From the NCBI GenBank assembly GCA_963837985.1, contig CAWIPN010000001.1, positions 100,418 through 164,417 of the forward strand: DNA of 64,000 nucleotides. Reading direction: 5' to 3'. Positions 4,171 to 52,322 of this stretch are shown in pieces. The stretch's first letter is position 1, and the number at the start of each line of letters is the position of its first letter. A model generated the notes under the pieces. It did no database searches. It had not been told where the DNA came from and was given only the letters and a program-made list of their open reading frames with translations. Both the position numbers and the translations under genes were made by a program. The DNA is from an uncultured Alphaproteobacteria bacterium. Its GTDB lineage: Bacteria > Pseudomonadota > Alphaproteobacteria > Sphingomonadales > Sphingomonadaceae.

Positions 4171-5361
4171 GTGGCCGAGCCTGCCATCCTGCCGTTCGAC
4201 TGGTCCGATCCGTTCGACCTGGACTCGCAATTGAGCGACGAGGAACGACTCGTCCGCGACACGGCCGAGGGATATGCGCAGGAAAAGCTGCAGCCGCGAG
4301 TTACGCGGGCCTATCTCGAGGAGAGCTTCGACCGCGACATCCTCAGCGAGATGGGGGAACTCGGGCTGCTCGGCGCCACGATCCCCGAGGAATATGGCGG
4401 GGCCGGACTTGGCTACGTCAGCTACGGCCTGATCGCGCGCGCCGTGGAGCGGGTAGACAGCGGCTATCGCTCGGCGATGAGCGTCCAGTCGAGCCTCGTG
4501 ATGTACCCGATCTATGCCTATGGGACCGAAGAGCAGCGCAAGGCCTACCTACCCCGGCTCGCGAGCGGCGAAATCGTCGGCTGTTTTGGCCTGACGGAGC
4601 CGGATTCGGGCTCCGACCCGGGAAGCATGCGCACACGCGCGCAGAAGATCGACGGCGGCTACCGCCTCAGCGGCAACAAGATGTGGATTACCAATTCGCC
4701 AATTGCCGACGTGTTCGTGGTCTGGGCCAAGTCGGACGCTCACGACGGGAAGATCCGCGGCTTCATCCTCGACAAGGGAGCGAAGGGTCTGTCGGCGCCC
4801 AAGATCAAGGAGAAGCTGTCGCTTCGTGCTTCGATCACTGGCGAGATCGTCATGGACAATGTCGAAGTCGGCGAGGACGCGCTGCTGCCGAACGTCGAAG
4901 GGTTGAAAGGTCCGTTCGGCTGTCTCAACCGGGCCCGCTACGGGATCGGTTGGGGCGCGATGGGCGCGGCCGAATTCTGTTGCAACGCGGCTCGGCAGTA
5001 CACGCTGGACCGAAAACAGTTCGGAAAGCCGCTCGCCTCGACACAGCTCGTCCAGCTCAAGCTTGCCAACATGATCACAGAGATCACGCTCGGCCTCCAG
5101 GCAGCGCTTCGAGTCGGTCGACGCCTCGATGACGGCCAACTGGTTCCCGAGACGATCAGCCTCCTCAAGCGCAACAATTGCGGAAAGGCGCTGGAGATCG
5201 CGCGAATCGCCCGCGACATGCTCGGCGGCAACGGGATCAGCGCCGAATTCCAGGTAATGCGTCACGCCGCCAACCTGGAAACGGTGAACACATACGAGGG
5301 TACGCACGACGTGCACGCGCTCATTCTCGGTCGCGCCATCACCGGAATCGCCGCCTTCTAG
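4171..5361 (+). CDS. gcdH: Acyl-CoA dehydrogenase, glutaryl-CoA dehydrogenase-like
   Basis: [49 protein letters not shown] motifs. Confidence 0.88.
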
Positions 5362-5412
5362 CGGACAGCGCCGGATTTCCTTAAACTTTCCCCGCGCAAA
5401 GGGGGAAAGCGA

Positions 5413-5979
5413 ATGATCACCTGGATTGTCCTTGGCGTCGTCGTCCTGCTGCTTCTGTACGCAGTGGGCATTTACAACCGTCTCGTCCGGCTTCGCGCCC
5501 TCGTCAAAGAGGCGTTCAGCGGCATTACCGTCCAGCTTCGGCGGAGAGCTGACCTCATCCCGAACCTCGTCGAAACGGTCCAGGGCTATGCAACTCACGA
5601 GCGCGAGGTGTTCGAGGAGGTGACGGCACGGCGAGCTGAAGCGGTCCAGGCGCGAAGCGTCGAGCAGACGGCCCAGGCCGACGCGGCGATGACCGGGTTG
5701 CTCGGGCGGTTGCTCGCGGTCGCCGAGAACTATCCGCAGCTGAAGGCCAACGAGAATTTCCTTCAGCTCCAGGACCAGCTGGCGAGTATCGAGAGCGAGC
5801 TCCAAGGCGCGCGGCGCTATTACAACGCCACCGTTCGGGACCTCAACGCCACGATCCAGAGTTTTCCGCCAGTCCTGGTCGCCCGGCCCATGGGTTTCTC
5901 CGAGGAGCCGTTCTACCGGGACGAAGACCAGAGCATCCAGGCTGCTCCGAAAGTCGCGTTTCCCCGCCCGCCGGCGTGA
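5413..5979 (+). CDS. lemA: LemA family protein
   Basis: N-terminal TM, YN.LV.L, LRRRADLIPNLV, AENYPQLKANENFL, RRYYN. Confidence 0.95.
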   Translation: MITWIVLGVVVLLLLYAVGIYNRLVRLRALVKEAFSGITVQLRRRADLIPNLVETVQGYATHEREVFEEVTARRAEAVQARSVEQTAQADAAMTGLLGRLLAVAENYPQLKANENFLQLQDQLASIESELQGARRYYNATVRDLNATIQSFPPVLVARPMGFSEEPFYRDEDQSIQAAPKVAFPRPPA

Positions 5980-7877
5980 CCGTGCGACATCTTCGGCTCG
6001 TCCTCGCCGCGCTGCTGTTAGCCGCCGCGCCCGCCGGGGCGGAAGAGCGGATCACGAGCTTTGTCAGCGATGTCGCCATCCAGCCGGACTCGGCGCTCGA
6101 AGTTACCGAGACAGTCGACGTCCACTCGGAGGGAGACCGGATCCGACACGGCATCTACCGCGATTTCCCGACCCTCTATCGCAGCCGCAACGGCGGCCGC
6201 GTCCGGGTCGGCTTCACCTTTGAAGGCGCCGAACGAGACGGCCGCACCGAGCCGGCAACGGTGGAGCCGCTGGCCAATGGCGTAAGGATGAAGATCGGCA
6301 GCGCCGACACGCAAGTCGAGCCCGGCGACCATCGCTACGTCATCCGGTACCGGACCACGAGGCAGGTCGGGCGGTTCGAGGGTTTTGACGAACTCTATTG
6401 GAATGCGACCGGCAACGACTGGGCGTTCCCGATCGATGTGGCGGAAGCGCGGATCCGCCTCCCCTCCCCGGTCAGCTTCGGCAAGCGGGCCGCCTACACG
6501 GGACCGCAGGGATCGACCGAACACAACGCGGAGGTCGTTTCGGAAGCTCCGGGCGAAATCGCGTTCCGCACGACAGCGCCGCTCGCTCCGCACGAGGGGC
6601 TGACGGTTGCCGCCGCCTTCCCGAAAGCCGTTGTCGGCGAACCCGCTGCGTCCAGCCGCCTTGGCTGGTGGCTGAGCGACTATGGCCCACCGGCCATCGC
6701 TGCCCTCGCCCTGTTCGGCCTCTTGGCCTTCTATTTCGTTGCCTGGCGCCGCGTCGGGCGCGACCCTCGGGCAGGAACGGTCGTTCCGATCTTCAATCCG
6801 CCCGATGACCTCAGTCCCGCCGGGATGCGTTACGTCCGCCACATGTCGGCCGACAATCGAGCCTTCGCCGCGGCGCTCGTCGACATGGGCGTGCGCGGCC
6901 ACGTCAGGATTTACGAAGAGGACGGAGGCTGGTTTTCCAGCGACACGCGGCGGATCGAACGGCTGCCCGGTTCGTCGCCCCTTCCCGAGGAAGAACAGGT
7001 GGCCCTCGACGCGCTCGCTTCGACTGGTGAAGTCGTCGAGATGAAGCAAGAGAACTGGCGCACTTTCTCCTCTGCGGAGAGTGCGTTGGAGCACGTCCTT
7101 CGTGCCAAATACGAAGGGCGGATATTCAAACGGAACACCGGCTGGGCGATTGCGGGCTTCGGCCTGTTTCTCGTCGGCTTGTGGCTTGCCGCAGCGTCGA
7201 TCTCGATCGCCATCGGATTTGCGGACACGGTGACCATCGTCGTTGCCCTCGGAGCGGGCGTAACGGCGGTGCTTTTCATTGTCGTCCAGCACAGGATCGG
7301 ACCGCGGGCAACCTGCCTGTTCAGCGGCCTCGGCCTCCTCTTCGCCTTCGGTGCTCTGGCTCTTGGCTTGCCGCTGTTCGTGCAGGCGCTTGCGAGTGGG
7401 TGGTGGTTCCCGCTCCTCCTTCCGTCACTCGCGCTGCCGGTCGTGATTTCCGCATTCTGGTGGATGTCGGCTCCAACTGCGGCTGGACGGCAGGTGCTCG
7501 ACCACATAGCCGGGTTCGAGCAGTATCTCTCGATAACGGAACGAGAGCGGCTGGACCGAATGACGCCTCCCGAGGACACACCCGAGTTGTTCGAGAAATA
7601 CCTCCCCTACGCGATCGCACTCGGTGTCGAGAATCGCTGGGCGGACCGTTTCGCTCCGGTCCTTGCCGCGGCGGCTGCCCAGGGGCACCAGGGATTCGCC
7701 TGGTATTCGGGCTCGCACAGTCCGTGGAGCGACCCCGGTCGTTTCGTCTCGAGCGTCGGCTCGTCTCTTGCGACCAGCGTCAGCTCCGCGTCGAGCGCGC
7801 CCGGGTCAAGCAGCGGATCGGGCGGCGGCGGTTCTTCAGGAGGTGGTGGTGGCGGCGGTGGCGGCGGAGGCTGGTAA
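5976..7877 (+). CDS. DUF2207-family membrane protein
   Basis: Signal peptide, GIYRDFPT, ELYWNATG, several TMs, LPYAIALGVE..WA, Gly/Ser-rich tail GGGSSGGGGGGGGGGGW; GTGA overlap with lemA. Confidence 0.9.
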   Translation: MTVRHLRLVLAALLLAAAPAGAEERITSFVSDVAIQPDSALEVTETVDVHSEGDRIRHGIYRDFPTLYRSRNGGRVRVGFTFEGAERDGRTEPATVEPLANGVRMKIGSADTQVEPGDHRYVIRYRTTRQVGRFEGFDELYWNATGNDWAFPIDVAEARIRLPSPVSFGKRAAYTGPQGSTEHNAEVVSEAPGEIAFRTTAPLAPHEGLTVAAAFPKAVVGEPAASSRLGWWLSDYGPPAIAALALFGLLAFYFVAWRRVGRDPRAGTVVPIFNPPDDLSPAGMRYVRHMSADNRAFAAALVDMGVRGHVRIYEEDGGWFSSDTRRIERLPGSSPLPEEEQVALDALASTGEVVEMKQENWRTFSSAESALEHVLRAKYEGRIFKRNTGWAIAGFGLFLVGLWLAAASISIAIGFADTVTIVVALGAGVTAVLFIVVQHRIGPRATCLFSGLGLLFAFGALALGLPLFVQALASGWWFPLLLPSLALPVVISAFWWMSAPTAAGRQVLDHIAGFEQYLSITERERLDRMTPPEDTPELFEKYLPYAIALGVENRWADRFAPVLAAAAAQGHQGFAWYSGSHSPWSDPGRFVSSVGSSLATSVSSASSAPGSSSGSGGGGSSGGGGGGGGGGGW

Positions 7878-8408
7878 TCACCACGCCGGTCGTTTCAGGA
7901 CGACCGTCGGAGAACCGTGGTAAGCGCTTTCGCAGACCCGCTCGAAGCCGAGCTTGTCGGCTAGCTTGAGCGACGGTTCGTTAGCGGGAGCGATGATCGC
8001 CCAGATCGGCGTCGGCTCGAGATTGTCGCGCGCCCAATCCAGAACCGCTCGGCAGCTTTCCGACGCCAGTCCCTGCCCGTGCGTCTCGGTCGCGAAAATC
8101 CAGCCCATCTCCGGCTCCTCGCCGAACTCGGGCTCCAGGTCCCTCCAGCCGATGAACAAGCCGACATTGCCGACCAGCGCCTTGTCGCTCTTGCGCTCCA
8201 CGGCCCAGGTGCCGAATCCGTCGAACTGCCAGCCGCCCACCGCTGCCCGCAGCCGGCGCCAGCATTCTTCCGCACCCATCGGCTCAGGCCCGAAGTGCCG
8301 GTGCACCTCGGGCTCCCGCATGATTGCGTGATAGGGACGGAAGTCGTCCTTCCGCCACGGACGAAGGGTCAGCCGCTCCGTTTCGATATGCGGAGCTTCG
8401 CGGATCAC
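7878..8408 (-). CDS. RimJ/RimL-type GNAT N-acetyltransferase
   Basis: IETERLTLRPW, EMGWIF..HGQGLASE, N.PSLKLADKLGF. Confidence 0.9.
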   Translation of the reverse strand: MIREAPHIETERLTLRPWRKDDFRPYHAIMREPEVHRHFGPEPMGAEECWRRLRAAVGGWQFDGFGTWAVERKSDKALVGNVGLFIGWRDLEPEFGEEPEMGWIFATETHGQGLASESCRAVLDWARDNLEPTPIWAIIAPANEPSLKLADKLGFERVCESAYHGSPTVVLKRPAW

Positions 8409-8411
8409 CTG

Positions 8412-8642
8412 TTACTTCTTGCCGAGCTTGAGCCCGCCAAAGCGCTTGTTGAAGCGCGCAACCTGGCCGCCAGTGTCGAGCAGCTTCTGATTGCCGCCCG
8501 TCCATGCGGGGTGAACCTTGGGATCGATGTCGAGATGAAGCGTGTCGCCTTCTTTGCCCCAGGTCGAACGAGTTTCGAACTTGGTGCCGTCGGTCATCTC
8601 GACCGTGATGGTGTGGTAGTCGGGGTGGGTGCCGGATTTCAT
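8412..8642 (-). CDS. rpmE: 50S ribosomal protein L31 (no Cys, non-zinc type)
   Basis: [35 protein letters not shown]. Confidence 0.97.
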
Positions 8643-8750
8643 GTCTGTGTCCTTGAGATTGGCTGGTTTCCGACCAGCCGAAACAGGGTCTTCGTCAAAA
8701 TGTCCTTTGGCGAGGTCCCATCAGGTTGCGGCCCCTTATATGGGGGTGGC

Positions 8751-9317
8751 TCAAGATGCAACCGAGACACGCCGGCGGATGGCCGGGAGCCGGTCCTCGG
8801 CAAGTGCAAATCCGCCGAACAGAAGGGCCGAATACAACAGGTCGCCGGCGAGGCTGTTCTGAAAGAACGGAATGGCCGCGACATAGCAGGCCGCAAGACC
8901 TTGCGCGGTTTGCGGATAGAGCCCGCTGAACAGCCACACGCCCAGATTGGTCAGCACGAAGAACAGGATCGAGCTCGAAATCGCGGCTGCCCCGATGGCG
9001 AGCGCAGTCTTGCGCCGTGCGACGGCCCAACCGATGAGAACTGTGAGCGCGAAGCTTGCGTAGACGAAGCCGATCCCCGGATAAAAACCGCCAAGAACAG
9101 CGTCGCTGACGAGCAAGGCTCCGAACGGTGCCGCGAAGGCCAGCGACTTCTTCGGTAACTGCGCTCCGCTGAACAGCGCCATCGCCGCGATGGGCGAAAA
9201 ATTGGGCGGATGCGGGACCAGGCGAAGTGCGGCTGCGCCGGCGATTGCGGTCAGTATCGCCAGCAGTCGGGCGTTGCTGTCGAAGCGAGTTGCGTCGTTG
9301 GCCATGCTGGCGCTCAT
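8751..9317 (-). CDS. DUF6580-like integral membrane protein (putative vitamin transporter, S-component-like)
   Basis: LRLVPHPPNFSPIAAMALFSGA, ILFFVLTNLGVW, Y..AIPFFQNSLAGDLLY motifs; about 6 hydrophobic segments. Confidence 0.75.
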   Translation of the reverse strand: MSASMANDATRFDSNARLLAILTAIAGAAALRLVPHPPNFSPIAAMALFSGAQLPKKSLAFAAPFGALLVSDAVLGGFYPGIGFVYASFALTVLIGWAVARRKTALAIGAAAISSSILFFVLTNLGVWLFSGLYPQTAQGLAACYVAAIPFFQNSLAGDLLYSALLFGGFALAEDRLPAIRRRVSVAS

Positions 9318-9335
9318 AACCGCCCCGCCGGTCGA

Positions 9336-9363
9336 TTGACAATCGCTGCGTGGCGGCGGAATC
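9336..9363 (+). promoter_or_regulatory. Candidate sigma70 -35 (TTGACA) for the riboswitch-btuB transcript, inside palindrome CGATTG-A-CAATCG
   Basis: Exact TTGACA at 9336-9341 about 30 nt upstream of the aptamer; -10 element weak. Confidence 0.4.
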
Positions 9364-9370
9364 CTCGTAC

Positions 9371-9503
9371 AACGACGAGGGTGCCGTCCACGGTGTTCGC
9401 ACCGATGGGGGCGGTGAAAAGGGAAGCCGGTGCAAATCCGGCGCTGTGCCCGCAACTGTAAGGCCGCCGGCTTGCGGCCGAGCCAGGAACCTGCCTTCGT
9501 CGG
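9371..9503 (+). ncRNA. Cobalamin riboswitch (short form, no long P6 extension)
   Basis: GGTG..AAAAGGGAAGCCGGTGCAAATCCGGCGCTGTGCCCGCAACTGTAA..GAGCCAGGAACCTGCC core; P1 CGACGAGG/CCTTCGTCG; UUCG-capped P2; upstream of a TonB receptor. Confidence 0.95.
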
Positions 9504-46915: not shown

Positions 46916-48158
46916 AACGAAGCACCTGCACCGGATCCGTGCTCGCCGCTTTCCACGCAGGGTAGAGCGTGGCGAGGAAGGACAGCACCAGCGCGACGAT
47001 GACGATGGCGGTGACTTCGAACGGATCGGTCTTGGAGGGCAAATCGGTGAGGAATCGAACCGACGGGTCCCACAAATTCTGGCCGGTCAGATACTGGATC
47101 GCGTTCACCACGTCCTGGCGGAAGAAAAGGAAGATCGCGCCGAGAACCAGCCCCAGGAGGATTCCGAGCGACCCGATGGTGACGCCGACCGTCACGAACA
47201 CCTTCATCATCCCGCGCCGGCTCGCGCCCATTGTGCGCAGGATCGCGATGTCGCGCGTCTTGGCCCGGACCAGCATGATCAGCGACGACAGGATGTTGAA
47301 CACCGCGACGAGCACGATCAGCGACAGCACCACGAACATCGCCACGCGCTCCACTTCGAGCGCTTCGAAGAGGGCCGAGTTCATCTGCTTCCAGTCGACG
47401 ATGATCCCCTTGCCCTGCACCAGCGGCTTCAGGGGCGCGATGATCGAATCCACCCGGTCGGGATCGGTCGTCTGGACTTCGATGGTGCTGACGTTGTCGC
47501 CCATCAGGAGCAAATTCTGCGCGTCCTGCATCGGCATGACGACGAAGCTGTTGTCGTAATCGTAGATGCCGACCTCGAATACCGCCCCGACGGTGTACGA
47601 CACGATGCGCGGCACCGTTCCGACCACCGTGGAGCGGCCTTCGGGACTGATCAGGCTGATGGTGCTTCCCGGATAGGCGCCCAGCGTTTCTGCAAGGCGC
47701 GACCCGATTGCGACGCGGCCGCTTCCCGGCGAAACGAGGCGAAGGTCGCCAGCCTGCACATTGCCCGAAATGACCGGATTGTGCTGAATGTCGTCCATTC
47801 GCATGCCGCGAACCAGCACGCCTTCCACCCGCCCGTTGGACGAGGCCATAAGCGGCTGCTCGATCAGCGGAGTCGCGGAGGTGACTCCGGGCAGCTTGCG
47901 CGCCTTGTCGGCAATGCTTTTCCAGTCCGGAAGCTGGCCTTCATAGCCCTGGACGATCGCGTGCCCGTTGAGCCCGGTGATCTTGTCGAACAGCTCGGCC
48001 CGGAAGCCGTTCATCACGCTCATCACGATGATCAGCGCGGCAACTCCGAGCGCGACCGCCAGAAGGCTGATGGAGGCGACGAGGAAGATGAAGCCCTCCC
48101 CTTTGCCGGGGAGAAGGTAACGGCGAGCGACCATCCGCTCGTACGAATTGAGGATCAT
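46908..48158 (-). CDS. lolE: Lipoprotein-releasing ABC transporter permease LolC/E
   Basis: [57 protein letters not shown]. Confidence 0.95.
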
Positions 48159-49477
48159 CCCGTCAGCCTCGCAAGCGCGCTCTCGACGCTCAGTTCCTCA
48201 CGCTCGCCGGTCGCCCGGCGCTTCAGCTCGACCACGCCGTTCGCGACCCCGCGCGGGCCGACGATGACCTGCCAGGGCAGGCCGATCAGGTCCATCGTGC
48301 CGAGCTTCACGCCGCCGCGGTCGTCGCGGTCGTCGTACAGCACCTCAATTCCCGCTCGCCGCAGGTCCGAATAGATTCGATCGGCGGCGGCGACCGTCGC
48401 CTCGTCGTCGTGCCGCATCGTGACAACGCCCACTTTCCACGGGGCAACCGATTCCGGCCAGATTATTCCCGCTTCGTCGTGGCTCGCTTCGATGATCGCC
48501 GCGACCAGGCGCGACACGCCGATCCCGTAGCTTCCCATCATCGGCGTGATCATCTGCCCGTCCGGGCCAGACACCTTCAGGCCCATCGATTTCGAATATT
48601 TGTCGCCGAAGTAGAAGATGTGACCCACTTCGATCCCGCGGCCGGTGCGCTTACGCTCGTCGGAAACGTCCGCCCAGCGCGCCTCGTCGTGAGTTTCGTC
48701 GGTGGCCGCATAGGTACAGCTGACGTCGGTGAAGAGGTTGTGGAGGCCCACCGGGTCGTCGTAGCCGAGCCCGGACCGGCTCCAGTCCATGTCGTCGAAG
48801 GCGGCATCATAGAAGACTTCGCTCTCGCCCGTGGGAGCAAGAACGATGAACTCGTGCGAAAGGTCGCCGCCGATCGGGCCCGATGCGGCCGCCATCGGCA
48901 CCGCCCGGATTCCCATCCGCGAAAAGGTGCGCAGGTACGCGAGGAGCTGGGTGTAGTAACTGAGCCGCGCACCGGCCTCGTCGAGGTCGAAGCTGTAGGC
49001 GTCCTTCATCAGGAATTCGCGGCCGCGCATCACTCCGAACCGCGGTCGCACTTCGTCCCTGAATTTCCACTGTATGTGATAGAGCGTGCGCGGGAGGTCG
49101 CGGTAGCTCTTGGTGTCGTCGCGGAACAGCGACGTGATCATTTCCTCGTTGGTCGGCCCGTAGAGCATCTCGCGCTCGTGCCGGTCGCGGATCCGCAGCA
49201 TTTCCGGCCCGTAGGCGTCGTAGCGGCCGCTCTCCCGCCACAGCTCTGCGCTCTGAAGCGTCGGCATCAGCACTTCCTGAGCGCCTGCGCGGTCCTGCTC
49301 CTCGCGAACGATCTCCTCGATTTTTTGCAGCACGCGCACGCCGATCGGCAGCCACGCATATATCCCCGCAGCGGTCTGGCGGACGAGGCCGGCACGAAGC
49401 ATCAGCTTGTGACTGACGATTTGCGCGTCCGACGGGCTTTCCTTCAGGACCGGCAGAAAGGCGCGCGAAAACCGCAA
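48155..49477 (-). CDS. proS: Proline--tRNA ligase (short type without INS editing domain)
   Basis: TTG start after [58 protein letters not shown]. Confidence 0.96.
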
Positions 49478-49510
49478 GTCATGATCCTCGAATTGCTGTT
49501 GGCGGCGAAG

Positions 49511-49538
49511 CCCTAGGGCGCTCTCCCGCGCAAGGCAA
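49511..49538 (-). promoter_or_regulatory. Putative sigma70 promoter of proS with palindromic -10
   Basis: TTGCCT-N16-TAGGGC on minus; GCCCTAGGGC also gives TTGCTG-N16-TAGGGC on plus (49493-49520). Confidence 0.45.
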
Positions 49539-49753
49539 TGGAATGCCGCGGGTGGAATGCCGTGTGTCCGCAGGGACACAGAGCGGGCGAGAAAGCCACT
49601 CGCACGCCACTCCACGGGTGACAAGCGGGCCGAACGAGGTTTAGTTTTTCCTGGTGCCGAATGCTCCGCTCTAGGGCGACGTTTCGGGGCCGCCCGAAAG
49701 TGCGGCGGAGACACTGTTCAGGGGGCTGACGAGCAATCGTCACGCAGGACGCC

Positions 49754-49874
49754 CGGATCGCAATGCGGTCCGGGCGTTTGCTTTTCCGGATTGAACTGGC
49801 GGATCGCAATGCGGTCCGGGCGTTTGCTTTTCCGGATTGAACTGGCGGATCGCAATGCGGTCCGGGCGTTTGCT
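49754..49874. repeat. 46-bp tandem repeat, 2.6 copies, each with a terminator-like hairpin
   Basis: Unit CGGATCGCAATGCGGTCCGGGCGTTTGCTTTTCCGGATTGAACTGG at 49754 and 49800, plus a 29-bp partial copy at 49846. Confidence 0.95.
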
Positions 49875-49887
49875 ACGATCGGTCCTG

Positions 49888-50937
49888 CTATTTTCTGGCG
49901 TTCGACAGATCGAGCGTCCCGGCTGGCGCGAATCCGTACCTGCGGTAAATGGCCTGCGCTTCAGTGCTTCGGAGAAAGTCGAGAAACGCCGCCGCAGCCT
50001 GCGGATGCGGTGCGTCGACCAGCGATCCGGCGGTATAGGTCGCCGACCGGTTGGTCGAATTCGGCAGTTCGACGATGTCGAGCCCCTCGCTCGCTCTCGA
50101 CGCATGGTAGAGCGCTTCCGATTCCCACACGGGCGCGACGTCGGAGAGGCCGGCCATCAGTCGCATCGGCAATTCGCGATGGTGAATGTGCGTCAGATAC
50201 GTGGTTCCGGCCTTCACCTTGTTTTCCATGATGACGGATTTCAGCTTCTCGCCACCCGCGGCGACGTAGGCACCCTCGATCTGCCGGGCAATTCCTTCCC
50301 ATGCTGGGTTGGGCATCGACACACGGACATCGTTTCGAGCGAGGTCGGCGAGTGTACGGACATGCTTCGGGTTGCCCTTGCGCACCATCAGCGCGAGCTT
50401 GTTGTCGGCATAATCGACGAGCCGGGCGAAGCTGCGGCGTTCGGACTGCATCGCAACCATGCCAGACTTGCCGCGAGTCAGAACGTCGGGCTTCAGCGCA
50501 ATTCGCAAATTGCCGATTGCGAATGCCCCGCCGTGATTGGTGACCGCATCGACAAGAATTCCCGGCGGAAGCGTAACGTAGAACAGGCGCTGATATTCGG
50601 GATGGACGCGCTTGAACGCAGCCATCAGTTCCTGGACGACCATATATTGGTTGCCGGCGAAATAGACGACCAGCTGTGGGTCGACGATGTCGCCGTGCAG
50701 GTCGGGAAGATTATTGACTTCTGGAACCGTGAAATTTTTCGAATCCGATGGCGCCGGATCCCACGGCGGAAAGATCGCGGCGGGGAATCCGAGCGTTGTC
50801 GGCTGGCCGGAATAGCCCGACAATTGCTGCCAGCTTTGCTGCTCGGTGCCTGGCGCCTCGGCAAACGACTTTGCCCCTGCGGGGACAGCGAGCCCTGCAA
50901 GCGCGGCGATGGTCACTGCTTTGAACCCCGGGTGCAT
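49888..50937 (-). CDS. Periplasmic oxyanion-binding protein, ModA-like (molybdate/sulfate/thiosulfate)
   Basis: Signal peptide; YFAGN, NKLALMVRKGNPK.V..LADL, SMPNP, D.A.VW.SEA, AAAFLDFLRS.EAQAIY.RYGF. Confidence 0.75.
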   Translation of the reverse strand: MHPGFKAVTIAALAGLAVPAGAKSFAEAPGTEQQSWQQLSGYSGQPTTLGFPAAIFPPWDPAPSDSKNFTVPEVNNLPDLHGDIVDPQLVVYFAGNQYMVVQELMAAFKRVHPEYQRLFYVTLPPGILVDAVTNHGGAFAIGNLRIALKPDVLTRGKSGMVAMQSERRSFARLVDYADNKLALMVRKGNPKHVRTLADLARNDVRVSMPNPAWEGIARQIEGAYVAAGGEKLKSVIMENKVKAGTTYLTHIHHRELPMRLMAGLSDVAPVWESEALYHASRASEGLDIVELPNSTNRSATYTAGSLVDAPHPQAAAAFLDFLRSTEAQAIYRRYGFAPAGTLDLSNARK

Positions 50938-50975
50938 CGTGACTCCTGAATGGACCGGCGGCGACGCAGCGAAGA

Positions 50976-51530
50976 TTACATTTTCACCAGCGAATAGCCT
51001 TTGGCTTCCAGCTCCGGCACCGCGATCAGCGCTGACAATGTCACCCCGACCTTCGGGTTGACGTCTTTCACCGCGTAGTCGGAATCGGCGAGCGCTTGTC
51101 CGCAGACGTAGAACGTAACCCCGGCTTCCAGCAGCCTCGAGATCAATTCATTGTCCGGATTGGCCTTGCCAAATTTCGCCTTGTAGGCAGCCTCATTGAG
51201 GATTGTATTGGTCGCGCCGCCGTGAATTACCGCGACGAATTGGCGATGAGCCTTGTCCACGCCGGCGAATTCGTAGGCGTTGACCGCCCTGGCGACATGA
51301 TCGAGCGCCGAATTTATACCCTTGCCGTTCGTTTTGTCGGCAGTGACGTCGAACACGATCTTGTGAACCGCCGACGGAGCCGGCATCAGCGCCGCTCCGC
51401 TATACGTCAGAATATCCCCATAGCCGGGAACGGCCGGCGAGACGCGCTGGGTTCCGGCAACCGGCTCAGCCACTGCCGGCGTTGCAGCAAGTGCGGCGCC
51501 CAGCGCTGCGGCCAAGATGATCCGAACCAT
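50976..51530 (-). CDS. Exported DsrE/DsrF-like family protein
   Basis: Signal peptide; KIVFDV, VAVIHGGA, NP..ELI..L..AGV.FYVCGQAL (single Cys). Confidence 0.8.
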   Translation of the reverse strand: MVRIILAAALGAALAATPAVAEPVAGTQRVSPAVPGYGDILTYSGAALMPAPSAVHKIVFDVTADKTNGKGINSALDHVARAVNAYEFAGVDKAHRQFVAVIHGGATNTILNEAAYKAKFGKANPDNELISRLLEAGVTFYVCGQALADSDYAVKDVNPKVGVTLSALIAVPELEAKGYSLVKM

Positions 51531-51640
51531 GTGTCTCCCCTTTTCGCCTGACGAATCCGGCTGATGCCTTCAGTGAAAACTTATGGCCCGCCCAACGGCC
51601 GCGCACAACTCGGAGAGGATAAAGGCGCACTCGCCAAGAG

Positions 51641-51717
51641 TGGTAGCGGAGGAGGGACTTGAACCCCCGACACGCGGATTATGATTCCGCTGCTCTAACC
51701 AGCTGAGCTACTCCGCC
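51641..51717 (-). tRNA. tRNA-Met(CAT), probably elongator
   Basis: Cloverleaf GGCGGAGTAGCTCAG..GCGGA-ATCATAA-TCCGC..GTTCAAGTC..CCA; G4:C69/G5:C68 argue against Ile2; no C1:A72 mismatch of fMet. Confidence 0.93.
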
Positions 51718-51844
51718 CCAATCGCGGCTCTCCGCTGTCCTTCCGGACCGGGCGGCGCCATTCAAGAAAGCTGCACACGAAGCAGGTGCGCGCGGCGATA
51801 TAGGAGCGGCGAGTGAGGCGGTCAACGAACGACGAGACTTCCTA

Positions 51845-51869
51845 GGAACCGGTTACGGCCGCTCTCGTT
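51845..51869 (+). promoter_or_regulatory. EcfG/sigmaT-type general-stress promoter
   Basis: GGAAC-N16-CGTT upstream of DUF3775 gene. Confidence 0.65.
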
Positions 51870-51893
51870 GAGCCGATCAAGGCAAGAGAGATT

Positions 51894-52322
51894 ATGGACA
51901 CCGCAACACCCCTCGAGACACTTTGCCGCATCGTATTGCGAGCGCGCGAATATGAAGCCCAGACTCCCAGCGAGTACGATGCCGATGAAACGGCAGACAA
52001 TGTCGATGACGAGGACGAAGGCTCGCTTTCCGTCCTCGACGATTCGATCAACGACAGCGTGGAGGAAGAACTCCGCTCGATCCTCGAGGATCTCGGAGAG
52101 GACCAGCTGATGGAGGTCATCGCGCTGTGTTGGGTCGGGACCGGCAATTACGATGCGTCGGACTGGGACGAGGCGCTCCAGGAAGCGCAGGAAATGCACG
52201 ACGACGGCGGCACCGAAGCGATTATCGACGAGCTTCTCGAAATGCCGCTGCTTCCGTCCGTTCTCGAAGCCGGCCTCGCCGCGTTCGACCTCAATTGCGA
52301 CGGTGTCGGCGAGGTTACCTGA
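51894..52322 (+). CDS. DUF3775 domain protein
   Basis: Acidic; LCRIVLRARE, L.EDQL.E..AL.WVG.G.Y...DW.EA, LLEMPLL...LEAGL..F. Confidence 0.8.
   Translation: MDTATPLETLCRIVLRAREYEAQTPSEYDADETADNVDDEDEGSLSVLDDSINDSVEEELRSILEDLGEDQLMEVIALCWVGTGNYDASDWDEALQEAQEMHDDGGTEAIIDELLEMPLLPSVLEAGLAAFDLNCDGVGEVT

Follow-up and report, generated by a model that had tools for sequence, protein, structure and literature searches.

A tRNA-Met islet in a sphingomonad genome encodes a transporter-less periplasmic binding protein and an exported DsrE-fold protein, a conserved pair linked to the cytochrome TsdA

Results

Main finding

In a 64,000-nucleotide stretch of the genome of an uncultured Alphaproteobacteria bacterium of the family Sphingomonadaceae (GenBank assembly GCA_963837985.1, contig CAWIPN010000001.1, positions 100,418 to 164,417 of the forward strand; this whole stretch is hereafter the window), we identified two genes on the minus strand, 38 bp apart and directly 3' of a tRNA-Met gene, of which the first encodes an exported, single-cysteine DsrE-fold protein (184 aa, 50976..51530) and the second a periplasmic binding protein without a transporter (349 aa, 49888..50937). 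Comparison with homologous loci across bacteria shows that these two proteins form a conserved, transporter-less pair that is tied to the cytochrome TsdA by operon structure and phyletic pattern. TsdA is encoded on another contig of this genome, and we see about an even chance that the pair is an accessory of periplasmic thiosulfate/tetrathionate chemistry that acts in trans with that cytochrome. The arrangement had been pointed out in a first-pass annotation made from the sequence alone, and the coordinates, strand, spacing and tRNA-adjacent position of the two open reading frames (ORFs) all hold. The same annotation took the pair for a self-contained module, a picture that is not supported: the usual third partner, TsdA, lies on contig C8, beside a second, Tat-exported DsrE-like protein.

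Conservation of the pair and its association with TsdA

In a scan of one genome per species, at least 587 stretches encode the binding-protein subfamily. The best 80 of these were analysed together with the window and three other loci (84 loci in total), using profile searches over all ORFs. In 77 of the 84 loci, the binding-protein gene has a DsrE-like gene on its own strand within 3 kb, and the order and orientation seen in the window, with DsrE upstream of the binding protein, likewise recur in 77 of 84. A failure of the two genes to co-occur in other genomes had been named beforehand as evidence that would refute the first-pass proposal; these counts show that they do co-occur. A TsdA homologue was identified within 5 kb of the binding-protein gene in 67 of 84 loci, and a DsrE-like gene and TsdA are both present in 65 of 84; most of the loci without a partner are contigs that end within ~1 kb. 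The loci span Pseudomonadota, Bacteroidota, Thermodesulfobacteriota, Myxococcota and Kryptoniota. By sequence, the operon cytochrome is a genuine TsdA (E = 1e-54 to Allochromatium vinosum TsdA, and 3e-83 to the TsdBA fusion 5lo9), often preceded by a gene for a TsdB-like dihaem cytochrome, and no permease, ATPase or other transporter gene is conserved near the binding protein in the 84 loci. The link to a sulfur oxyanion suggested at first pass is supported by the 67 loci with a bona fide TsdA, and the metal oxyanion named there as an alternative is not supported.

The association extends to genomes in which the genes are physically separated. TsdA is encoded elsewhere in all 5 of the 5 genomes that were checked among those without TsdA within 5 kb of the binding-protein gene (Thioclava electrotropha, two gammaproteobacterial metagenome-assembled genomes, and two Sphingobacteriaceae genomes). 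In a maximum-likelihood tree, the window binding protein belongs to a nine-member clade (support 100/100) together with the Thioclava protein and that of locus L010. Within this clade, which branches from inside the TsdA-linked family, the two members whose flanks are complete (Thioclava and L010) lack a neighbouring TsdA gene. The binding protein is unlinked from TsdA in Thioclava, L010 and L001, of which L001 also has a DsrE gene. Seen from the side of the DsrE protein, the gene of each of the three closest homologues that we looked up (54%, 47% and 44% identity) immediately precedes one for such a binding protein, in one case within the arrangement LysR, then DsrE-SBP-TsdB-TsdA, where SBP denotes the solute-binding protein; a Maricaulis homologue (35% identity) stands alone. 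The Bacteroidota loci carry a divergent, 152-aa form of DsrE that still matches PF02635.

Recurrent accessory neighbours of the operon are a TauE sulfite exporter, a DUF442/BLH sulfurtransferase domain, an MBL-fold protein (represented in this genome by a homologue that matches the dioxygenase part of Blh), EamA, and LysR regulators; LysR or ArsR genes often flank the operon. Two apparent features of these neighbourhoods were rejected. Long 'DsrE' or 'SBP' fusions turned out to be upstream extensions or out-of-frame read-through, and the UbiE-type methyltransferase encoded divergently from the Dyella operon is an ordinary ubiE product (304 bits, PF01209), that is, an unrelated housekeeping neighbour rather than a partner.

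Several loci depart from the common layout. At three loci of Lysobacterales (L033 6991-7875, L053 6984-7868 and L082 5697-6581), an ArsR-type helix-turn-helix domain of ~100 aa is in frame with the signal/transmembrane segment of DsrE, with no stop between them; the reading frame would be compatible with a regulator anchored in the membrane whose DsrE domain senses in the periplasm, or else with a DsrE gene that has an unrecognised internal start. In locus L039 (6279-13488) and similar loci of Mucilaginibacter, which show the Bacteroidota version of the operon, the genes for TsdA, DsrE (152 aa) and the binding protein are followed optionally by those for AhpC, DUF305 and a YncE-like beta-propeller; a further SBP_bac_11 paralogue, which is short (246 aa, 22% identical), and a LysR gene complete the loci. 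A 636-aa fusion of a dihaem cytochrome c peroxidase (CCP_MauG) domain and a TsdA-type domain is encoded between the DsrE and binding-protein genes in a Desulfarculaceae metagenome-assembled genome (L013 5308-8858).

A binding protein without a cognate permease

The binding protein matches PF13531 (SBP_bac_11) with 137.5 bits (cut-off 25) and has the two-lobed type-II binding-protein fold, which together place it in that family. An AlphaFold (AF2) model built on the family alignment has a pLDDT of 90.2, with a well-ordered N-terminal segment. Foldseek comparison of this model returned ModA/WtpA, YvgL-like, PEB3/AcfC and sulfate-binding proteins at 14-21% identity, with the best target-normalised TM-score (0.86) to YvgL-like and ModA structures. 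Profile comparison ranks PEB3 and AcfC (E = 5e-16) first among solved relatives, ahead of Sbp and ModA. The protein contains no cysteine. Its homologues, 123 sequences that are ~50-65% identical and come from several phyla, share the nearly invariant hallmark motifs PPW, DLHGD, FAGNQ, TLPPGIL, MPNPxWEG and IHHR, and the window protein retains all 16 residues that are invariant in the 123-sequence alignment. Judged by these sequences, the binding protein is a distinct, tightly conserved subfamily of PF13531. The motifs IFPPW, FTVPEVNNLPDLHGD and THIHHRE that had been noticed at first pass are all present; being nearly invariant in the 123 family members, they are not atypical, and the N-terminal extension that had been considered a peculiarity of this protein is a hallmark of the family.

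Assignment of the protein to a known transport family was tried and rejected. Its scores are far below the cut-offs of the models for ModA (TIGR01256, 26.6 vs. 62.5 bits; NF007958, 20.9 vs. 253; NF002918, 33.6 vs. 288) and of those for Sbp and CysP (TIGR00971, 40.6 vs. 155.5 bits; NF008106, 37.3 vs. 308; NF008022, 33.7 vs. 288), so that the first-pass label 'ModA-like' had to be dropped. The assembly comprises 2.16 Mb in 8 contigs and is 93% complete; it contains no PF13531 gene other than this one. Genome-wide, BPD_transp_1 permeases are encoded by just two genes, whose position between pstS and pstB-phoU-phoB identifies them as pstC and pstA. Profile searches found no ModB/CysTW-type permease in the 93%-complete genome, and there is no transporter gene in the window. 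The binding protein is a true orphan that lacks a cognate permease, and the transporter independence proposed at first pass stands, both for this genome and for the 84 neighbourhoods.

An exported DsrE-fold protein with a single conserved cysteine

The protein encoded upstream is the genome's only match to PF02635 (33.2 bits, cut-off 22.7). Its AF2 model, also built on the family alignment, has a pLDDT of 90.5 and shows the DsrE/YchN alpha-beta fold, which together with the score above the gathering threshold makes it a member of the DsrE family. Foldseek matches include MTH1491 (1l1s), ST0148 (2pd2), a DsrE/F-like protein (3mc3), YchN (1jx7), DsrEFH (2hy5) and TusBCD (2d1p); identity to the solved DsrE-fold structures matched at E <= 0.001 is ~9-17%. 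The precursor contains exactly one cysteine, Cys143, in the motif VCGQ. This residue is invariant in 18 aligned homologues, is at least 85% conserved in 76, and aligns with the cysteine of the Tat-type homologues in profile comparison. Of 12 alignment columns that are at least 85% conserved, the window protein deviates at one.

Both islet proteins appear to be exported, as had been claimed at first pass: read directly from the sequence, their N-termini look like Sec signal peptides, MHPGFKAVTIAALAGLAVPAGA followed by KS and MVRIILAAALGAALAATPAVA followed by EP, and in the DsrE protein the predicted Sec-type signal covers residues 1-21.

TsdA and other sulfur genes in this genome

A tblastn search with the operon cytochromes identified a TsdA gene on contig C8 (C8:49184-50213; locus L090, 5185-6214). 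The encoded protein has both CxxCH motifs and the RGCF motif of the cysteine ligand, and is colinear with an intact 342-aa homologue from a metagenome contig, to which it is 79% identical over the last 218 residues. Directly upstream of tsdA (C8:48454-49161; L090, 4455-5162) lies the gene for a 235-aa single-cysteine protein with a Tat signal, recognisable by its RRR Tat motif, and a VRFAVCG motif. This Tat protein has no Pfam match, but is a remote homologue of the window DsrE family with the cysteine motifs aligned (hhalign probability 92%, E = 5e-7), and matches the NCBIfam model NF052225, 'thiosulfate dehydrogenase', with 29 bits (E = 6e-7; cut-off 300). Among its homologues, a 74%-identical one is followed by an intact TsdA, and two more distant ones stand alone.

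The phyletic sample comprised 60 related genomes, 36 of which are of the same genus. Of these 60 relatives, 0 have the binding protein, 0 the Tat protein and 0 TsdA, and all three are present here, on two contigs. The window DsrE gene, for its part, lies inside the islet stretch that is absent from four aligned relatives.

Other sulfur genes were also recorded. On contig C4 (~6480-9480; L091, 2484-5483), genes for an ArsR-type regulator, a persulfide dioxygenase, a 145-aa fragment of the sulphur-transport family PF04143 and TauE lie together; the dioxygenase matches the dioxygenase part of Blh (E = 1.6e-113), and homologues of this dioxygenase and of TauE flank the tsd operon in Rhodanobacter. 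Contig C8 carries cysNC (640 aa) and cysD at 4179-7000, and CysD is the only PAPS_reduct-family match genome-wide; the same search did not find CysH in the 93%-complete genome. The pathway for assimilating sulfate by reduction may lack this step, unless CysH is in the missing 7%. No DoxD above the cut-off (best score 20.8 bits) and no SoxY were found in the genome.

A strain-specific islet between tRNA-Met and proS

The upstream border of the islet is the 3' end of the tRNA-Met gene (51641..51717, minus strand; anticodon CAT), which was identified by ARAGORN and matches the Rfam tRNA model with 65 bits. In blastn comparison with four same-genus loci, the strain-specific islet covers 49794..51640 (minus strand) and consists of extra repeat copies and the two genes: homology to the four genomes includes proS and a 74-bp hairpin element (49720-49793), is interrupted by a gap, and restarts exactly at 51640/51641. 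The flanks are conserved, with proS, encoding prolyl-tRNA synthetase (48155..49476, minus strand), downstream of the islet, and a DUF3775 gene (51894..52322, plus strand; PF12616, 66.7 bits), which is syntenic in relatives, across the tRNA. The islet thus combines a position at a tRNA 3' end with absence from close relatives, as is characteristic of tRNA-associated islands. No integrase was found in the islet, and no direct repeat of the tRNA 3' end at its far border.

Within the islet, each gene has its own Shine-Dalgarno sequence (GGGGAG and AGGAG, by direct reading); that of the binding-protein gene, AGGAG, is in the 38-bp spacer that separates it from the DsrE gene (50938..50975, minus strand). 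The two genes are probably co-transcribed. A scan for sigma-70 promoters detected no site in 49450-51950, terminator matches were at chance level, and an Rfam scan returned the tRNA only. Towards proS, a tandem repeat with a 46-nt unit in 2.7 copies (49754..49891) was detected in a repeat search, each copy containing a GC-rich hairpin (ACGCCCGGATCGCAATGCGGTCCGGGCGT). The hairpin copy at 49720-49793 is kept upstream of proS in the four relatives, which lack the extra copies; the partial third copy, which adjoins the binding-protein stop codon, marks the downstream border of the islet. The predicted RNA fold of the hairpin region (49720-49891) has an energy of -65.1 kcal/mol (z = -4.45), and the hairpins likely serve as a terminator or insulator ahead of proS.

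The interval between tRNA-Met and proS is a variable hot spot, and the two islet genes are strain-specific cargo, because relatives hold differing cargo at the same place. Among the same-genus loci L093-L100, three contain a metC-like gene in this interval and one contains two small exported ORFs, with broken synteny in others; L093 (2445-4288) has the C-terminal fragment of an integrase (2445-2684) and a glycosyltransferase gene, and is the sole relative with an integrase fragment. YcaO/TfuA-like genes were observed upstream of proS in two same-genus relatives.

The first-pass annotation had described the two genes as richer in A/T-ending codons than their neighbours. This is correct relative to the flanking genes, with GC contents at third codon positions (GC3) of 0.72 and 0.71 compared to 0.81-0.85, but the difference is modest on the scale of the genome, where these GC3 values are only at about the 20th percentile; in overall GC content, both genes rank at the 2nd-5th percentile among 1572 ORFs of the genome. 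Base composition agrees weakly with a foreign origin of the islet. In this genome the pair is an islet acquired apart from the cytochrome, and we hold it at about even odds to be a horizontally acquired copy of the conserved DsrE/binding-protein pair.

For proS itself, the listed 519-aa ORF is probably ~79 codons too long, and translation probably starts at TTG near 49476 rather than at GTG at 49714: the protein is 70-84% identical to those of ten same-genus genomes, with matches that begin at residue 2 of the 441-aa query, and the ORFs of the relatives begin at the equivalent LR(V/L/F)SR..FLPVLKE.

Discussion

Proposed role of the pair

We propose that the pair serves the TsdA encoded on contig C8 in trans, in periplasmic thiosulfate/tetrathionate chemistry. 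Under this proposal, the binding protein would capture thiosulfate or tetrathionate in the periplasm and present it to a redox partner, Cys143 of the DsrE protein would carry a thiosulfonate or sulfane sulfur group, and import by an ABC transporter would have no part in the process. Two options can be envisaged for the cysteine. It could accept the product (tetrathionate + Cys-SH -> Cys-S-SO3- + thiosulfate), as described for archaeal DsrE3A, or it could be the cysteine co-substrate of the SoxA-related TsdA. A bolder version, which we consider unlikely, is that DsrE and the binding protein are a portable substrate-handling cassette for periplasmic tetrathionate-forming enzymes, with the binding protein delivering thiosulfate and TsdA coupling it oxidatively to the cysteine of DsrE. 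If this were the case, the result would be a minimal Sox-like, carrier-based pathway in which TsdA is more than a condenser of two free thiosulfates, and the cassette could be acquired alone and act in trans even where, as here, TsdA already has a Tat-type DsrE partner of its own.

A number of observations weigh against this proposal. The window contains no cytochrome gene within 8 kb of the pair, and between residues 124 and 125 the single TsdA gene of the genome is interrupted by a 1-nt frame break (GAT TTC C TCG). The break splits the SoxA/TsdA domain, and a Pfam search of the genome with PF21342 returned nothing. It is either a recent inactivation or an assembly error, and the system may be inactive here. 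The window DsrE protein has no NCBIfam match, including to NF052225, and its signal is of the Sec rather than the Tat type. TsdA is fully active in vitro without helpers (PMC9237845), and catalysis itself therefore does not depend on the pair. No member of the binding-protein subfamily has a known ligand, and the solved relatives, at only 14-21% identity, are too distant for the pocket to be read. An apparent exchange of the Sbp anion loop 'SGG' for 'WEG', seen in a single local alignment, was discarded. Finally, the likeness to the Acidithiobacillus ferrooxidans proteins AFE_0042 and AFE_0043, considered below, is drawn from their descriptions, with NF052225 as a proxy for AFE_0042.

Alternative explanations

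The pair could instead scavenge reduced sulfur independently of TsdA, with the binding protein capturing thiosulfate, the DsrE cysteine stripping off the sulfane sulfur, and a channel of the YeeE/PmpAB type taking it up. Such a route would suit a genome that lacks Sbp/CysP and CysTW and in which CysH was not found, although CysH may sit in the unassembled 7%, and contig C4 has a fragment of the 'sulphur transport' family PF04143 next to its genes for persulfide dioxygenase and TauE. It would also suit the closest relatives of the binding protein (Thioclava and L010), which are unlinked to TsdA; however, the 5 of 5 checked genomes whose binding-protein gene is unlinked to TsdA still encode TsdA. 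Neither the window nor the set of 84 loci shows a YeeE-type gene linked to the pair, and the partner found family-wide is a respiratory cytochrome, not an importer. Taken together, these observations make scavenging distinctly improbable.

A different use of the same proteins would be sensing, that is, the ligand-bound binding protein, the thiol state of DsrE, or both would report sulfur compounds to a regulator or chemoreceptor. This idea draws on PEB3 and AcfC being the closest solved profile relatives, on the LysR or ArsR genes that often flank the operon, and on the ArsR-type domain in frame with DsrE in Lysobacterales. The last arrangement, however, was found at three related loci only, whereas DsrE is free-standing in most loci, and no sensor kinase, methyl-accepting chemotaxis protein or regulator is encoded beside the pair in the window. 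We assign a sensory role a low probability.

We are similarly sceptical of the possibility that the islet is a functionless, decaying leftover, i.e., a fragment of a dsrE-sbp-tsdBA operon that was stranded, minus its cytochromes, at the tRNA-Met hot spot. Among the 60 relatives the islet is unique; it contains no TsdA, and the genome's only TsdA is frame-shifted, as could be expected under this scenario, but the frame break may be an assembly error, and the two ORFs show no such damage: both are intact, have good ribosome-binding sites, and keep nearly all family-conserved residues (11 of 12 columns in DsrE, and 16 of 16 in the binding protein). A binding protein unlinked from TsdA is, moreover, what the clade of Thioclava, L010 and L001 maintains.

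Finally, it is hardly credible that the binding protein belongs to a ModABC or CysPTWA ABC importer encoded elsewhere, with the DsrE gene as an unrelated neighbour: the many 'molybdate' annotations, the ModA/Sbp-like fold and the weak matches to the CysP, Sbp and ModA models are outweighed by scores far below every cut-off of those models, by a 93%-complete genome in which the only BPD_transp_1 permeases are those of pstC and pstA, and by conservation of DsrE and TsdA, but not of a permease or ATPase, beside the 84 members, such that molybdate or sulfate uptake by the pair is essentially excluded.

Implications

In the literature, TsdA is treated as self-sufficient, at most with TsdB as electron acceptor. 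The pair described here accompanies TsdA in most of the analysed genomes with the binding-protein subfamily, a subfamily encoded in at least 587 stretches and five or more phyla, which points to an unstudied periplasmic step of thiosulfate/tetrathionate metabolism, such as substrate capture, product removal or a protein-bound intermediate. The public annotation of many subfamily members reads 'molybdate ABC transporter substrate-binding protein', and our findings suggest that this annotation is wrong. We see the pair as an unexplained and mis-annotated helper, widespread in bacteria, of a well-known enzyme; the window instance would be a stripped-down, trans-acting variant of this helper. Acquisition of the pair alone at the tRNA-Met hot spot, apart from the cytochrome, amounts to a natural experiment in a genome whose four components (the pair, TsdA and the Tat protein) are all strain-specific, and argues that it is a separable functional unit.

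Comparison with known systems

The binding protein shares the type-II periplasmic binding-protein fold with ModA/WtpA, Sbp/CysP/SubI and PEB3/AcfC, and differs from them in its additional structured N-terminal segment (PPW...DLHGD), its invariant HHR, and the lack of any ABC partner that we could find. The DsrE protein, in turn, shares its fold with DsrE3A/TusA and DsrEFH/TusBCD and contains a conserved, putatively reactive cysteine; DsrE3A of Metallosphaera cuprina forms a Cys-S-thiosulfonate from tetrathionate (PMC4175335). Those systems are cytoplasmic and work with TusA, Hdr or DsrC, whereas the window protein is exported and paired with a binding protein. A closer match in compartment is MHY1_00068 of Methylovirgula thiovorans HY1, a periplasmic DsrE-like sulfurtransferase in a sox operon, the role of which has been hypothesised (PMC9371685). 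By its description, this is likewise an exported DsrE-like protein encoded with periplasmic thiosulfate-oxidising enzymes, but its partner is SoxYZAB, in contrast to TsdA and the binding protein here, and this genome has no SoxY.

With the TsdA/TsdBA systems (A. vinosum TsdA, 4wq7; Marichromatium purpuratum TsdBA, 5lo9), the common ground consists of the clear TsdA homologues in 67 of 84 loci and on contig C8, the periplasmic compartment, and the presumed substrates, thiosulfate and tetrathionate. The difference is that the cytochrome is not part of the window locus. In publications, tsd loci consist of tsdA alone or of tsdB-tsdA (PMC9237845 and references therein), and full-text searching of the literature found no paper on the DsrE-binding-protein-TsdA operon or on the role of the pair.

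Judged by analogy, the closest published counterpart of the pair is the tsd-sbp-doxDA cluster of A. ferrooxidans, a sulfur-induced cluster of AFE_0042, AFE_0043, doxDA and a gene for a rhodanese-like protein (PMC6335251, Fig. 6; PMC2754497, tables). This published tsd-sbp-doxDA-rhd cluster also agrees with the first-pass statement that similar binding proteins occur in thiosulfate-oxidation loci of acidophiles. Judging from best matches named Sphingomicrobium, the host here appears to be a small-genome sphingomonad, whereas A. ferrooxidans is an acidophile; furthermore, DoxDA is missing from this genome and rhodanese from the islet. AFE_0042 is a Tat-signal protein that was later identified as a haem-free, tetrathionate-forming thiosulfate dehydrogenase (TSD), and AFE_0043 is a periplasmic solute-binding protein in a cluster without transporter genes (PMC6335251, PMC2754497). 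Compared with this ~25-kDa, haem-free Tat protein, the window DsrE protein, at 184 aa, is short; it carries a Sec signal and gives no match to NF052225, whereas the Tat protein encoded next to tsdA on contig C8, a remote homologue of the window DsrE protein, does match this model weakly. What the A. ferrooxidans cluster and the islet have in common is the pairing of an exported protein, of thiosulfate metabolism in A. ferrooxidans and putatively so here, with a periplasmic solute-binding protein that has no transporter.

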